The notes beneath the pieces were generated by a model that saw only the letters and a list, made by a program, of their open reading frames with translations, did not search any database and was not told the origin of the DNA. 8,504 bases of DNA. Source: a virus (lineage: Duplodnaviria > Heunggongvirae > Uroviricota > Caudoviricetes). The stretch lies in the IMG/VR virus record IMGVR_UViG_2609459840_000006; one strand, given 5' to 3'. The first letter of the stretch is position 1, and every line of letters begins with the position of its first letter. Below are positions 2,641 to 8,479 of this stretch, piece after piece. The translations under genes and the position numbers were made by a program.

Positions 2641-3137
2641 TGCCTCCATCATTACGAAAAGCCGTTGCTGCTGCTATTGGTGGCGGAGCAATTGCTATAG
2701 CATCAGTGTTAATCACTGGCCCAAGTGGTAACGATGGTCTGGAAGGTGTCAGCTACATACCATACAAAGATATTGTTGGTGTATGGACTGTATGTCACGG
2801 GCATACAGGAAAAGACATCATGCTCGGTAAAACGTATACCAAAGCAGAATGCAAAGCCCTCCTGAATAAAGACCTTGCCACGGTCGCCAGACAAATTAAC
2901 CCGTACATAAAAGTTGATATACCGGAAACAACGCGCGGCGCTCTTTACTTGTTCGTTTACAACGTGGGCGCTGGCAATTTCAGAACATCGACGCTTCTTC
3001 GCAAAATAAACCAGGGCGATATCAAAGGCGCATGTGATCAGCTACGTCGCTGGACATATGCTGGCGGTAAGCAATGGAAAGGTCTCATGACTCGTCGTGA
3101 GATTGAGCGTGAAATCTGTTTGTGGGGTCAGCAATGA
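2640..3137 (+). CDS. R: SAR endolysin (phage 21 R-type lysozyme), 165 aa
   Basis: N-terminal Gly/Ala-rich signal-anchor-release segment ([20 protein letters not shown]) and catalytic residues at E35, D44, T50 as in R21. The ATG overlaps the holin stop (TAATG). Confidence 0.9.
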
Positions 3138-3601
3138 ACAGAGTAACCGCGATTATCTCCGCTCTGGTTATCTGCATCATCGTCTGCCTGTCATGGGCTG
3201 TTAATCATTACCGTGATAATGCAATCGCCTACAAAGAACAGCGCGATAACAAGGCCAGTGAACTGGAGAAGGCGAACGCCACCATTACTGACATGCAGCA
3301 GCGCCAGCGTGATGCTGATGCACTCGATGATAAATACACGAAGGAGTTAGCTGATGCGAAAGCTGAAAATGATGCTCTTCGGCGCAAGCTTGATAATGGT
3401 GGTCGGGTGCTCGTCAAAGGAAAATGCCCTGTGCCATCCTCAGCCGAAACCTCCAGCGCCTCCGGCATGGGCAATGATGCCACCGTCGAACTCTCTCCAG
3501 TTGCTGGACGAAACGTTCTCGGTATCCGGGACGGAATTATCCGCGACCAAACAGCACTGAGAACGCTTCAGGAATACATCAGGACGCAATGCCTTCGATG
3601 A
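3134..3601 (+). CDS. Rz: Rz i-spanin (inner-membrane spanin subunit), 155 aa
   Basis: [30 protein letters not shown].. is near-identical to the lambda Rz N-terminus, with one TMD and a coiled-coil periplasmic domain. The ATG at 3134 overlaps the R stop (ATGA); the track start at 3122 is GTG. Confidence 0.88.
3354..3560 (+). CDS. Rz1: Rz1 o-spanin lipoprotein, embedded in the +1 frame of Rz, 68 aa
   Basis: [19 protein letters not shown].. has a signal peptide with lipobox (VVGC) and a Pro-rich mature part ([16 protein letters not shown]). Strong SD aaggag 7 nt upstream of the ATG. Lies entirely inside Rz. Confidence 0.8.
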
Positions 3602-3775
3602 TAGCGATAATTTTACTCATCATCCTTCACATCTGGCTCTGTAGACAGGGTGGTGCTCACTTCTGGAGTGAATCCAGATTAAACATCTCATTGCTGATGC
3701 TTGATATTGAGCATTTTGCGCGCGGTAAGGGGCTGCGTTGAGATAAGAGCCAGTCATTACAAATACCAGGATTTA

Positions 3776-3801
3776 GCCTCGCATTCGCGGGGCTTTTTAT
3801 T
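3776..3801 (+). terminator. Rho-independent terminator downstream of the lysis cassette
   Basis: gcctcgc-attc-gcggggc (7-bp stem with one G.U pair) followed by tttttatt. Confidence 0.5.
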
Positions 3802-3807
3802 GCCATT

Positions 3808-3840
3808 ACAAAAGCCACTTCCTACAGAGTGGCTTTGATA
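3808..3840 (-). terminator. Rho-independent terminator for the leftward accessory operon
   Basis: aaagccact-tcctacag-agtggcttt; on the minus strand the 3' arm runs into cttttg. Confidence 0.45.
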
Positions 3841-3882
3841 ATGGCTTATACCCTACACGGGATAACTTAACTGATATCCCTT

Positions 3883-4047
3883 TTAAAGGATAAAGGTATT
3901 CAAGCCTGACACATCATGCGCTGTATCGTCGCCGTATTCCCGTATTAACAGAGACCGTAGCCCGACGGGGAACTCCTTCTGCGCGAGTGTGTGGGAATAA
4001 TCAAAAACGATGCACACCGGGGTTACCGGGTACACATATTTCATCAT
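3883..4047 (-). CDS. Hypothetical small protein, 54 aa (absent from the ORF track, apparently because of a length cutoff)
   Basis: Hand translation: MMKYVYPVTPVCIVFDYSHTLAQKEFPVGLRSLLIREYGDDTAHDVSGLNTFIL*. It lies 45 bp downstream of the ybcV-like stop and just upstream of the minus-strand terminator. The SD is weak. Confidence 0.3.
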   Translation of the reverse strand: MMKYVYPVTPVCIVFDYSHTLAQKEFPVGLRSLLIREYGDDTAHDVSGLNTFIL

Positions 4048-4092
4048 GCCAGCGAGTCCGGTTCTGGCACGGAAGAAACCGGACGTTATGAT

Positions 4093-4503
4093 TTAGTGCG
4101 GAAATATTTGTGTAGTGTTCTGAATGTTCTCAGTAAAGAGTAATGAATTATCAAAGGTATAGTAATACCTTTTGTTTTCGTGGATATTTGTAATCCATCT
4201 GAAAACCCCTGCTGTAGCAAGATTTTTCCTGTATTCGTAAAATGATAACTCTCCTGATTTGAATCCTTTTAAGGTGGCTTCTATAAGGCATTTATTTTTT
4301 GAAAATCTTACATTTACAACCTTACCCTGTCCTTTTATTAAAACCGTATTATCGTTTTCAAGAACAAGATGAATATTCTCTGTGGCTAAATAGTAAATGT
4401 AATGTGAGACATTGTGACGTTTTAGTTCAGAATAAAACCAGTGATAGTTTAAATTATTTCGCACTTTATCGAATATTTGTTTAAAAATGGCAACCTGAGC
4501 CAT
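4093..4503 (-). CDS. ybcV: DUF1398 / YbcV-like prophage protein, 136 aa from the second ATG
   Basis: [80 protein letters not shown] resembles E. coli DLP12 YbcV as I remember it (unverified). The ATG at 4503 has SD ggaagg; the upstream ATG at 4518 has none. Markedly AT-rich. Confidence 0.75.
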
Positions 4504-4559
4504 TGTAGTACCTTCCATGTGATATGAGGGGTGTAGTCTGCACGATTATCTAAATTGCT

Positions 4560-4793
4560 TCAATCTGGTCTGATCTGTTTTCTGAGCAATTCAGTAATGT
4601 CACTCTTTTCTTTGTTTGCTTCAGGAGAAACTCTTTTTTCTGAGCACAGTCTCCGGCGGCAGGCTTCAATGACCCAGGCTGAGAAATTCCCGGACCCTTT
4701 TTGATCAAGAGCGATGTTAATTTGTTCAATCATTTGGTTAGGAAAGCGGATGTTGCGGGTTGTTGTTCTGCGGGTTCTGTTCTTCGTTGACAT
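4560..4793 (-). CDS. Ribbon-helix-helix DNA-binding protein, DUF3950 / YlcI-like, 77 aa
   Basis: Basic N-terminal arm (KNRTRRTTTR), then a beta-strand (NIRFP), helix (NQMIEQINIALDQ), KGSGN turn and helix (FSAWVIEACRRRL): the Arc/MetJ/CopG RHH pattern. Resembles DLP12 YlcI from memory. ATG at 4793. Confidence 0.7.
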   Translation of the reverse strand: MSTKNRTRRTTTRNIRFPNQMIEQINIALDQKGSGNFSAWVIEACRRRLCSEKRVSPEANKEKSDITELLRKQIRPD

Positions 4794-4992
4794 GAGGTTG
4801 TCCCGTATTCAGTGTCGCTGATTTGTATTGTCTGAAGTTGTTTTTACGTTAAGTTGATGCAGATCAATTAATACGATACCTGCGTCATAATTGATTATTT
4901 GACGTGGTTTGATGGCGTAGATGCACGTTGTGACATGCAGATGATAATTATTATCATTTTGCGGGTCCTTTCCGGCGATCCGACAGGTTACG

Positions 4993-5004
4993 GGGCGGCG
5001 ACCT
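4993..5004. other. cosN 12-nt cohesive-end sequence (gggcggcgacct)
   Basis: Exact match to the lambda cohesive end GGGCGGCGACCT, preceded by ..aggttacg, the lambda right end. Confidence 0.8.
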
Positions 5005-5101
5005 CGCGGGTTTTCGCTATTTATGAAAATTTTCCGGTTTAAGGTGTTTCCGTTCTTCTTCGTCGTAACTTAATGTTTTTATTTAAAATACCCCCTGAAA
5101 A

Positions 5102-5156
5102 GAAAGGAAACGACAGGTGCTGAAAGCGAGCTTTTTGGCCTCTGTCGTTTCCTTTC
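5102..5156. repeat. cosB R-element inverted repeat (terminase small-subunit binding sites R2/R1)
   Basis: Perfect 15-bp inverted repeat gaaaggaaacgacag (5102-5116) / ctgtcgtttcctttc (5142-5156), separated by 25 bp; a related tttccgttcttcttcg lies at about 5047-5062 (R3-like). Confidence 0.6.
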
Positions 5157-5181
5157 TCTGTTTTTGTCCGTGGAATGAACA

Positions 5182-5727
5182 ATGGAAGTCAACAAAAAGC
5201 AGCTGGCTGACATTTTCGGTGCGAGTATCCGTACCATTCAGAACTGGCAGGAACAGGGAATGCCCGTTCTGCGAGGCGGTGGCAAGGGTAATGAGGTGCT
5301 TTATGACTCTGCCGCCGTCATAAAATGGTATGCCAAAAGGGATGCTGAAATTGAGAACGAAAAGCTGCGCCGGGAGGTTGAAGAACTGCGGCAGGCCAGC
5401 GAGGCAGATCTCCAGCCAGGGACTATTGAGTACGAACGCCATCGACTTACGCGTGCGCAGGCCGACGCACAGGAACTGAAGAATGCCAGAGACTCCGCTG
5501 AAGTGGTGGAAACCGCATTCTGTACTTTCGTGTTGTCGCGGATCGCAGGTGAAATTGCCAGTATTCTCGACGGGATCCCCCTGTCGGTGCAGCGGCGTTT
5601 TCCGGAACTGGAAAACCGACATGTTGATTTCCTGAAACGGGATATCATCAAAGCCATGAACAAAGCAGCCGCGCTGGATGAACTGATACCGGGGTTGCTG
5701 AGTGAATATATCGAACAGTCAGGTTAA
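5182..5727 (+). CDS. nu1: Terminase small subunit Nu1, 181 aa
   Basis: MEVNKKQLADIFGASIRTIQNWQEQGMPVLRGGGKGNEVLYDSAAVIKWY.. is essentially identical to lambda gpNu1 from memory, with a winged-HTH N-terminus. The 3' end overlaps the A start as in lambda. Confidence 0.95.
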   Translation: MEVNKKQLADIFGASIRTIQNWQEQGMPVLRGGGKGNEVLYDSAAVIKWYAKRDAEIENEKLRREVEELRQASEADLQPGTIEYERHRLTRAQADAQELKNARDSAEVVETAFCTFVLSRIAGEIASILDGIPLSVQRRFPELENRHVDFLKRDIIKAMNKAAALDELIPGLLSEYIEQSG

Positions 5728-7168
5728 CAGGCTGCGGCATTTTGTCCGCGCCGGGCTTCGCTCACTGTTCAGGCCGGAGCCACAGACCGCCGTTGAATGG
5801 GCGGATGCTAATTACTATCTCCCGAAAGAATCCGCATACCAGGAAGGGCGCTGGGAAACACTGCCCTTTCAGCGGGCCATCATGAATGCGATGGGCAGCG
5901 ACTACATCCGCGAGGTGAATGTGGTGAAGTCTGCCCGTGTTGGTTATTCCAAAATGCTGTTGGGTGTTTATGCCTACTTCATAGAGCATAAGCAGCGCAA
6001 CACACTTATCTGGTTGCCGACGGATGGTGATGCCGAGAACTTTATGAAAACCCACGTTGAGCCGACCATCCGCGATATTCCGTTGCTGCTGGCGCTGGCT
6101 CCGTGGTATGGCAAAAAGCACCGGGATAACACGCTCACCATGAAGCGTTTTTCCAATGGTCGTGGCTTCTGGTGCCTGGGCGGTAAAGCGGCAAAAAACT
6201 ACCGTGAAAAGTCGGTGGATGTGGCGGGGTATGATGAACTTGCTGCCTTTGATGAGGATATTGAACAGGAAGGCTCTCCGACGTTCCTTGGCGACAAACG
6301 TATTGAAGGCTCGGTCTGGCCAAAGTCCATCCGTGGCTCCACCCCCAAAGTGAGAGGTACCTGCCAGATTGAGCGTGCAGCCAGTGAATCCCCGCATTTT
6401 ATGCGTTTTCATGTTGCCTGTCCGCACTGCGGGGAGGAGCAGTACCTTAAATTTGGCGATAAAGAGACGTCGTTTGGCCTCAAATGGACGCCGGATGATC
6501 CCTCCAGCGTGTTTTATCTCTGCGAACATAATGCCTGCGTCATCCGCCAGCAGGAACTGGACTTCACTGATGCCCGTTATATCTGCGAAAAGACCGGGAT
6601 CTGGACCCGTGATGGCATTCTCTGGTTTTCGTCATCCGGTGAAGAGATTGAGCCGCCGGACAGCGTGACCTTTCACATCTGGACGGCGTACAGCCCGTTC
6701 ACCACCTGGGTGCAGATTGTCAAAGACTGGATGAAAACGAAAGGGGATACGGGAAAACGTAAAACCTTCGTAAACACCACGCTCGGTGAGACGTGGGAGG
6801 CGAAAATTGGCGAACGTCCGGATGCTGAAGTGATGGCAGAGCGGAAAGAGCATTATTCAGCGCCCGTTCCTGACCGTGTGGCTTACCTGACCGCCGGTAT
6901 CGACTCCCAGCTGGATCGCTACGAAATGCGCGTATGGGGATGGGGGCCGGGTGAGGAAAGCTGGCTGATTGACCGGCAGATTATTATGGGCCGCCACGAC
7001 GATGAACAGACGCTGCTGCGTGTGGATGAGGCCATCAATAAAACCTATACCCGCCGGAATGGTGCAGAAATGTCGGTATCCCGTATCTGCTGGGATACTG
7101 GCGGGATTGATCCGACCATTGTGTATGAACGCTCGAAAAAACATGGGCTGTTCCGGGTGATCCCATAA
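5702..7168 (+). pseudogene. A: Terminase large subunit A, truncated after codon 488 by IS186
   Basis: GTG start (as in lambda); MNISNSQVNRLRHFVRAGLRSLF... is near-identical to lambda gpA through ..KKHGLFRVIP, then TAA at 7166-7168 inside the IS186 terminal repeat. Lambda gpA is 641 aa, so about 150 C-terminal residues are missing from this reading frame. Confidence 0.9.
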
Positions 7169-7334: not shown

Positions 7335-8447
7335 TTAGTTCTTCTTTTCGGATCCGGCACTTCTGGGGGGGAAATCCAGCGATGGCTGGATTATGTCGTC
7401 AATTAAAAATGCGGCGAGTAGATTAGCAAATATCCACGCTTTCGCGAGTTCAGGTTCCTTTGCACGCAAAGCATCCAGGTGCAGCAAACTTTTGAGCCGC
7501 TTAAAAGCCAGTTCAATTTGCCATCGCAGACGGTAACAATCAGCCACTTGCTCTGCTGAATATTCATCTTCCGGTAATGATGTTAGCAATAGCACATGGC
7601 CCGCTGCTTCCAGCGTTTCCGCCTGAACTACTCGTCCTTTTCGACGATTCTCGCTGAGCAGTCGGGTTTTACTGATTAATGCTTTTTCGGGAGGAAGTGA
7701 TACGGCAATGAGACGTGCCGGAAAGGGAGCTCCGGCTTTTTTATTACCTGAATTGCCTATCATTACAGTGGTTTCACCGTTCTTACCGCAATCCAGCCCG
7801 CGCAGAAAACCCATCATGTCAAAGCGCATTCCTTCTGCAGTTAACCAGCGCAATCCTCGCCAGTGAACCCGGACGATATAATCAGCTTCTCCAAAAGCAA
7901 GTGAGCGGATACATTCGGGACGCGAACCGAATCCCCGGTCAGCAATGCGTATCTCGTCTGCCGTTTGCGCAAATCGGTCCAGCCGTTCAGCGTCTCTGCT
8001 GTCGGTTAGCTCAAAATCAGTGAACTGACAGGTATGAGGATCATATCCCATATGTAGTCGCCATTCAGCGCTGCCGCCCCCGGGCGCACTGATTGCTGTT
8101 CCATCGACAAGACGCAATCTCTTTCCGCTTGTACAACCCGTAACTGCGGCGCGTACAGCAAGTGTTTGTGCGGCAAGTATGCCAAACCAGTCGGCGGCAT
8201 TCCGCAGCCGCTTCAGGAGAGCCACGTCAGATAATGTTGCAACGTCATGGAGCTGAGCCCATGCAGTGACTTCACGTAATGACATCCCCCCGGGGCCGTA
8301 AGCCAGCCCCAGACGTAGCAGAGTTGCAGCATCACGAATTTCGCGGCGGCGGGTTAGAGCCCCGGCATTACGTGCCGAAGTATCCAGTTCTTCGGGCTTA
8401 CCAATATGGGCCAGAATTGCTGACCAGTTATCGTGAGAGTAATTCAT
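7335..8447 (-). CDS. IS186 transposase (IS4-family DDE transposase), 370 aa
   Basis: MNYSHDNWSAILAHIGKPEELDTSARNAGALTRRREIRD.. matches the IS186 transposase as I recall it. ATG at 8447; the track start at 8453 is GTG. Confidence 0.9.
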   Translation of the reverse strand: MNYSHDNWSAILAHIGKPEELDTSARNAGALTRRREIRDAATLLRLGLAYGPGGMSLREVTAWAQLHDVATLSDVALLKRLRNAADWFGILAAQTLAVRAAVTGCTSGKRLRLVDGTAISAPGGGSAEWRLHMGYDPHTCQFTDFELTDSRDAERLDRFAQTADEIRIADRGFGSRPECIRSLAFGEADYIVRVHWRGLRWLTAEGMRFDMMGFLRGLDCGKNGETTVMIGNSGNKKAGAPFPARLIAVSLPPEKALISKTRLLSENRRKGRVVQAETLEAAGHVLLLTSLPEDEYSAEQVADCYRLRWQIELAFKRLKSLLHLDALRAKEPELAKAWIFANLLAAFLIDDIIQPSLDFPPRSAGSEKKN

Positions 8448-8479
8448 CGGCACGTTAAATCATATCAGGCGTAATACCA

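Follow-up and report, generated by a model that had tools for sequence, protein, structure and literature searches.

A short gene at positions 4093–4503 of an Escherichia coli prophage differs sharply in base composition from the genes on either side of it. What is this gene, where does the AT-rich DNA begin and end, and does its composition tell us where the gene came from and how it is controlled in the lysogen? The initial annotation had described the island as a moron, independently acquired from an AT-rich donor and a likely target of H-NS. The stretch of DNA that we analysed (8,504 bp, referred to below as the window) belongs to a lambda-like prophage of E. coli that is defective, and the island corresponds to a DUF1398 gene of the ybcV/ydfO type in the accessory region between Rz and cos. 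We regard this account, together with the proposals on exchange, transcription and silencing made below, as likely. The feature was known before this analysis: the gene is on record in lambda, DLP12 and Qin, within an accessory region that is itself known. Its family, its position in the three genomes and the view of AT-rich prophage accessory genes as targets of H-NS had likewise been established beforehand. The earlier reading was partly right, since the gene is an accessory cassette that can be present or absent and is likely to be bound by H-NS, and overreached on the AT-rich donor and, as far as the term moron implies it, on a transcription unit of its own.

Setting of the Island in the Prophage

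From left to right, the window carries an IS1 element (1–580), a porin gene on the minus strand, an S21-type holin gene, the lysozyme gene rrrD, the Rz spanin gene (3122–3601, plus strand, G+C 0.52; Pfam Phage_lysis, E = 4e-29) and a 50-aa ORF. These are followed by a 54-aa ORF, ybcV and a ylcI/ynfO-like gene, all three on the minus strand, and then by cosN, the small terminase gene nu1 (5182–5727, plus strand, G+C 0.53; Pfam Phage_Nu1, E = 4.5e-100) and terL. Domains of the holin, lysozyme, Rz, Nu1 and gpA were found by Pfam around the island. The terL gene stops after residue 488, beside an IS186-like DDE transposase gene (7335–8453, minus strand), and matches to other genomes end at 7164. 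Since terL is cut by the IS186-like element and an IS1 sits at the left end, the prophage is defective. At least 80% of the 1.6-kb segment surrounding the island is present in about 1,027 of 5,426 complete E. coli genomes.

The cohesive-end sequence cosN, GGGCGGCGACCT, was read from the sequence at 4993–5004 (plus strand). In the alignment, the lambda record terminates at ...GGTTACG, immediately before cosN. With cosN at this position, the locus is placed in the accessory region between Rz and cos of a lambda-like genome. Between cosN and the start of nu1 there is also an inverted repeat (5101–5157) with 25-nt arms that are 84% complementary, which is probably part of cosB, the terminase-binding region.

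To the left of the island, the zone 3589–3845 holds bor in lambda and DLP12. In the window, this place is occupied instead by the plus-strand 50-aa ORF (phrog_11822), followed by a terminator-like hairpin (3775–3794, plus strand) and an inverted repeat with 18-nt arms (3802–3845). Together, the hairpin and the repeat may mark where the rightward lysis unit gives way to the leftward accessory unit. The 54-aa ORF (3883–4047, minus strand, G+C ≈0.52), taken from the ORF list, lies downstream of ybcV. Lambda, DLP12, Turner, mEp332 and Chlobot all keep the DNA of this ORF, and some records only, such as that of Chlobot, annotate it as a CDS. The ORF had no Pfam, PHROG or NCBIfam match. A leftward transcription unit may include it as its third gene.

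To the right, the ylcI/ynfO-like gene (4560–4793, minus strand) encodes a 77-aa DUF3950 protein (PF13132, E = 4.9e-21; NCBIfam YlcI_YnfO_N). The gene is oriented like ybcV and lies upstream of it, 41 bp from the long version of the ybcV ORF. Over residues 1–55, YlcI has 93–95% identity with its counterparts in lambda, K-12, Turner and mEp332. Its C-terminal tail differs from those of lambda and K-12 and goes with the arrangement that has no ybcW/lambdap79, and the corresponding 3′ end of the gene (≈4560–4630) falls within a variable zone of lower G+C.

Composition and Borders of the AT-Rich Island

Sliding-window and per-feature calculations gave a G+C content of 0.314 for 4093–4503, compared to 0.475 for the window in its entirety (8.5 kb). 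On the left, holin, lysozyme and Rz are at 0.47–0.52, and on the right, ylcI is at 0.440, nu1 at 0.527 and terL at 0.540. The estimate made by eye in the initial annotation, of about one-third G+C and less than in the flanks, was accurate (0.314 vs. 0.44–0.54), and the deficit is significant, with a z of −8.4 in a binomial comparison with the pooled lysis and terminase genes (G+C 0.521). All codon positions of ybcV are low (GC1 0.37, GC2 0.28 and GC3 0.30). Equally AT-rich windows of 411 bp make up 3.2% of all such windows in the stretch, and those outside the island all come from one unrelated stretch (starts 1690–1928), at the 5′ end of the porin gene and upstream of it.

That second AT-rich stretch (1690–2330, G+C 0.27–0.32) is deeper than the island. 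It spans the 543-bp intergenic region between porin and holin, together with the 5′ end of the porin gene, which is on the minus strand. It has the densest A/T tracts of the window, with 14 W6 starts per 100 bp.

The borders of the island were located by a two-change-point likelihood segmentation of 3602–5181, which was compared with 30 shuffles. The segmentation placed the AT-rich segment at 4086–4488, with a G+C of 0.30 vs. 0.47 to its left and 0.43 to its right. The gain in log-likelihood was 14.9, while the maximum among the 30 shuffles was 10.1. The change points thus make the island equal to the CDS to within 7–15 bp. On the right, a shoulder of 36–39% G+C extends from the island to ≈4600.

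The Island Encodes a DUF1398 Protein

The CDS at 4093–4503 (minus strand) encodes 136 aa and has coordinates identical to those of RefSeq WP_000079508.1; an alternative, longer ORF call begins at 4518. The RefSeq label, “DUF1398 domain-containing protein”, comes from E. coli chromosomes that match the window 100% here. The protein matches PF07166 (DUF1398) with E = 3.3e-43 and 147 bits (cut-off 22), so that the YbcV-like assignment made earlier was sound. The match is full length, with residues 13–131 of the long ORF corresponding to profile positions 1–119 of 119. A phmmer search matched the product to E. coli YdfO, which has a solved NMR structure (2HH8), with 80% identity over 135 residues (E = 2.9e-67). 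Identity is 76% with the product of the phage lambda ORF within lambdap78 and 78% with DLP12 YbcV. Four phages that have been sequenced (Kati, Chlobot, PhiR49_1 and ev099) encode the identical protein.

A frame found in the AT-rich DNA of a damaged prophage might also be spurious or decaying, the island being non-coding or pseudogenised DNA. The state of the prophage, with terL truncated by the IS186-like element and IS1 at its left end, would fit such decay, and G+C-rich stop-free frames are scarce in AT-rich DNA only by chance. The full-length Pfam match, a dN/dS of 0.18–0.36 relative to the other alleles, which indicates purifying selection, the identical proteins in four phages, and the solved structure of the paralogue (2HH8) together with a confident AF2 model refute this explanation, whose probability we regard as negligible.

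The AF2 model of YbcV made with distant homologues in the alignment is an α/β fold with a pLDDT of 87.8; a model made with an alignment of close homologues reached a pLDDT of only 51 and was discarded. The retained model superimposes on 2HH8 with TM-scores of 0.82/0.87 and an rmsd of 2.0 Å, and a fold search of the PDB returned YdfO (2HH8) as its sole significant structural neighbour. A search of BFVD with the model gave no match at E ≤ 0.001, NCBIfam had no match for YbcV, and Rfam had none within the window. From the model, YbcV is predicted to be a small cytoplasmic α/β protein with an orphan fold.

Two database names for the family were considered and rejected. DUF1398 proteins carry a PHROG label of “head protein” and an older label of “putative envelope protein”; both are unsupported, because phages do without the gene and no hydrophobic segment was seen on inspection of the YbcV sequence. 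Our working guess is that YbcV acts as an accessory factor in host modification or phage–phage competition, rather than as a component of the virion or the envelope. The significance of identifying the gene lies mostly in annotation hygiene.

Some gene calls combine PF07166 (DUF1398) and PF13132 (DUF3950) in one product of 177–233 aa (P0010 and P0014), and one such cluster has 761 members. These products could be real fusions, the result of read-through, or gene-calling artefacts. In the window, the ybcV and ylcI ORFs are in different frames.

ybcV Is an Optional Cassette in Lambdoid Genomes

We aligned positions 3100–5800 of the window with lambda, K-12 DLP12 and six phages. Turner and mEp332 share the Rz and nu1 flanks with the window and have no ybcV. 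In both, a hairpin (TCCGGTT...AACCGGA; 4060–4086, minus strand) that lies just past the ybcV stop codon joins directly to the 3′ part of ylcI (≈4600). These cassette-less junctions (≈4086 and ≈4600) agree with the G+C boundaries, and the left mosaic junction (4086/4087) is at the same base as the left change point, a small but useful point. The gene is thus an optional cassette of ≈0.5 kb with borders at the change in composition.

The hairpin that marks the left cassette junction is kept in all aligned relatives, including the ybcV-less Turner and mEp332, and its stem shows a compensatory T–A to C–G change in PhiR42_1; it may serve as an RNA 3′ end, as a processing site or as a boundary for recombination. 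That phage has a Qin-type left neighbourhood (cspI, ynfN and gnsB) and is homologous to the window only from ≈4055 rightwards.

The closest known counterparts are lambda lambdap78 (NP_597781; DUF1398 part at 47048–47452, minus strand) and DLP12 ybcV (b0558), which belong to the same family. They resemble the window gene in strand, in their place between the lysis genes and cos, in amino acid sequence (76–78% identity) and in G+C (0.31–0.32), and they have the conserved hairpin downstream and CTTCAATCTGGTCTGA upstream of ybcV. However, lambda and DLP12 have bor on their left side, and their ybcV and ylcI are separated by an additional 0.56 kb that contains ybcW/lambdap79 on the opposite strand; the window has neither bor nor this insert. 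YdfO of Qin (2HH8; NESG target ER251), whose gene occupies the equivalent position, is likewise similar, being 80% identical and having ynfO/ylcI directly upstream in the Qin-type arrangement, but Qin-type phages differ in their left neighbours (gnsB, ynfN and cspI).

No direct repeats were found flanking the cassette, and nothing there points to transposition. In a previous study, a ybcV::kan insertion in DLP12 was used to assay the acquisition of prophage DNA by lambda (PMC3945230). This assay and the conserved flanks suggest that the cassette is exchanged by homologous recombination. It would then move among lambdoid genomes through recombination in the hairpin on the left and in CTTCAATCTGGTCTGA/ylcI on the right, and probably not by transposition or site-specific insertion.

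Transcription of ybcV and the Moron Question

A moron has been defined as extra DNA compared to related phages, with a deviant G+C content and with its own promoter and terminator (PMC3594210). The first two properties are present: ybcV is extra DNA between genes that are adjacent in Turner and mEp332, and its G+C (0.314 vs. 0.44–0.54) changes abruptly at 4086 and 4488. To this extent, the earlier reading of the island as a moron is supported. A consensus scan of 3400–5300 for minus-strand σ70-like promoters, which may miss weak or activator-dependent sites, found only one, at 3563, and none upstream of ybcV or ylcI; nor could one be seen there by eye. The hairpin at 4060–4086 has no U tail, and its folding z-score (−0.23) is no better than that of shuffled sequence, so that its role as a terminator is only putative. 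For termination in the leftward direction, the closest strong structure is the inverted repeat with 18-nt arms at 3802–3845.

In its strict form, the moron explanation would make the island an autonomous unit with its own promoter and terminator, captured recently from an AT-rich donor and not yet ameliorated. The contrast in composition between ybcV and its neighbours, the presence or absence of the gene between otherwise collinear phages, its orientation against late transcription and the hairpin directly 3′ of its stop codon are all as this explanation would have them. The failure of the scan to find a minus-strand promoter-like site, the hairpin with no U tail and the stability of shuffled sequence, and the position of ybcV 41 bp behind ylcI argue against it. 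So does the evidence on alleles and donors given in the next section, and we consider the strict form improbable.

Rather than standing alone, ybcV is probably part of a multi-gene leftward unit, judging from the layout of the genes. It would be transcribed leftward, against late transcription, and probably together with ylcI, given their 41-bp spacing on the same strand. Like the lambdoid morons (HK97 gene 15, and bor and lom of lambda), ybcV is an extra gene of deviant composition between conserved modules, and its region holds a proven lysogenic-conversion gene, bor, in lambda. It differs from them in its probable membership of a multi-gene leftward unit and in that the scans gave no promoter or terminator of its own.

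The pairing with ylcI raises another possibility, namely that the two genes are a regulator–effector module (toxin–antitoxin-like, or acting in superinfection or defence) in which YlcI, as a small DNA-binding protein, would control or neutralise YbcV, and in which AT-richness is either incidental or serves H-NS gating. The genes lie on the same strand with a gap of 41 bp, and they are conserved together in PhiR70_1, PhiR42_1, Chlobot and Qin-type loci as well as in the window. Among PHROGs, YlcI weakly matches a HicB-like antitoxin (E = 0.007), and the Rz-to-cos region houses other accessory genes that are expressed in lysogens, such as bor. Furthermore, overexpression of ybcV gave a glycogen phenotype, in a list that also includes the toxins yoeB and hokA (PMC2853380). 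However, ylcI occurs without ybcV in Turner, mEp332 and 2H10, and ycgX-type DUF1398 genes have no ylcI neighbour, which weakens a toxin–antitoxin-like reading. In lambda and DLP12, the two genes are ≈0.56 kb apart with the opposite-strand ybcW between them, and ybcV::kan strains with an intact ylcI are viable (PMC3945230). An RHH fold for YlcI was not confirmed by a sequence search against the PDB, and PADLOC gave nothing for the window beyond a match at noise level (E = 0.023). The two genes are thus neither an obligate pair nor a match to a known type II toxin–antitoxin or defence profile, and a module of this kind seems very improbable to us.

Origin of the Low G+C Content

The low G+C resides both in the protein and in its codons. 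Recoded with the codon preferences of its neighbours (taken from lysozyme, Rz, nu1 and terL), the YbcV protein would have a G+C of 0.415, vs. 0.316 observed. An amino acid composition rich in F, Y, M, I, N and K thus accounts for approximately half of the deficit, and the choice of synonymous codons for the other half. The FYMINK fraction of YbcV is 0.42, and the GARP fraction is 0.13.

There are three classes of ybcV allele: the window type, the lambda/DLP12 type and the Qin/YdfO type. They have 81–85% nucleotide identity, a dS of 0.36–0.68 and a dN/dS of 0.18–0.36. The window allele is in a distinct class, with a dS of 0.36–0.45 relative to lambda and DLP12. All three classes have the same G+C (0.314–0.323) and GC3 (0.29–0.32). 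More distant DUF1398 genes (ycgX type, and those of Citrobacter and Raoultella) are at 0.33–0.42 and so lower than their flanks (0.40–0.50), although in two ycgX-type loci the difference is only ≈0.02.

An exhaustive phmmer search of 1.84 billion representatives returned just 189 clusters, many of them fragmentary. In a species-level genome scan, every confirmed relative was enterobacterial or phage-borne, with the proviso that the peptide patterns used came from enterobacterial sequences and are biased towards close relatives. (DUF1398 has been mentioned in papers on Staphylococcus and on a fungus.) The uniform G+C (0.314–0.323) at a dS of up to 0.68, together with the enterobacterial relatives, indicates that the low G+C is old and has been maintained within the gene lineage. 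The proposed independent acquisition from an AT-rich donor was not borne out, as no donor is visible and the diverged alleles keep the same G+C; from the sequences compared, a specific donor appears to be neither visible nor required. The low G+C would be a long-standing trait of the gene in the enterobacterial phage pool, rather than the trace of a recent import.

These results also bear on the strict moron explanation. Alleles at a dS of 0.36–0.68 with equal G+C and GC3 misfit a recent import that is drifting towards the composition of its host, no donor lineage was found in the phmmer search or the genome scan, and the gene belongs to the regular content of lambda, DLP12 and Qin. The conservation of low G+C across diverged alleles is a caution against calling every AT-rich phage gene a fresh import.

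The output of the species-level scan consisted mostly of lambda control-DNA contaminants. The lambda allele appeared in assemblies from unrelated phyla (Pseudomonas, Kitasatospora, Flavobacterium, Brevibacillus, Bradyrhizobium and others), where it sat either on ≈3.5-kb contigs or terminally on ≈48.5-kb ones. Such a pattern suggests contamination with lambda control DNA and not a real distribution.

H-NS, Hha and PdhR

The island is 68.6% A+T over 411 bp and has 9.2 A/T hexamer starts per 100 bp, vs. ≈1 in the flanking genes. It forms an extended AT-rich tract like those of E. coli loci silenced by H-NS and Hha, with ≈69% A+T over 0.4 kb and dense A/T tracts. The high-affinity H-NS motif (tCGwTwAATT) is not enriched: there is one 9/10 match inside ybcV (4463–4472), and the four matches in the window are not significantly more than the 2.8 expected.

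Published expression and binding data on H-NS and Hha concern orthologues, 76–78% identical, in other strains. In uninduced BL21(DE3), the ybcV copy of lambda-DE3 yielded 0 reads, and the number rose to 319 once T4 MotB, a protein that alters H-NS binding, was expressed (PMC7827196, Table S2). In the same table, ybcV is marked as increased by the H-NS inhibitor T7 gp5.5, and ybcW as increased when hns/stpA are deleted (PMC7827196, Table S2). Lambda S and R rose more than 1000-fold as well in the MotB experiment (PMC7827196), and part of the ybcV signal could therefore be due to prophage induction or read-through. Hha was 9.2-fold enriched at ybcW in K-12 (PMC2408971). The supplements of PMC4720273 make no mention of ybcV, ybcW, ydfO or ycgX. 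The orthologues thus resemble H-NS/Hha-silenced loci in being silent in lysogens and responding to H-NS antagonists, with Hha at ybcW.

Based on composition and on these orthologues, it is plausible that ybcV is an H-NS target in the lysogen, as the initial annotation had proposed. On this view, filaments of H-NS and Hha along the AT-rich DNA would keep the gene mostly silent, possibly with a metabolic input through PdhR. A more elaborate version, in which ylcI–ybcV, perhaps with the 54-aa ORF, is an H-NS-gated and PdhR-tuned module for competition or host modification, and in which the 31% G+C has been kept, in alleles as far apart as a dS of ≈0.6, by selection for xenogeneic silencing, strikes us as unlikely.

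For PdhR, genomic SELEX had identified a site in K-12 between ybcV and ybcW, AtcTGGTctgACCtcTT (PMC7660256). The K-12 ybcV mRNA was detectable by RT-qPCR and was down 10-fold in a pdhR mutant (PMC7660256), and these data suggest a PdhR-dependent promoter for K-12 ybcV. At the homologous place, at the right cassette junction, the window has a near-identical candidate PdhR-box-like sequence, ATCTGGTCTGATCTGTT (4563–4579, plus strand), which overlaps the stop-codon region of the 77-aa ylcI ORF.
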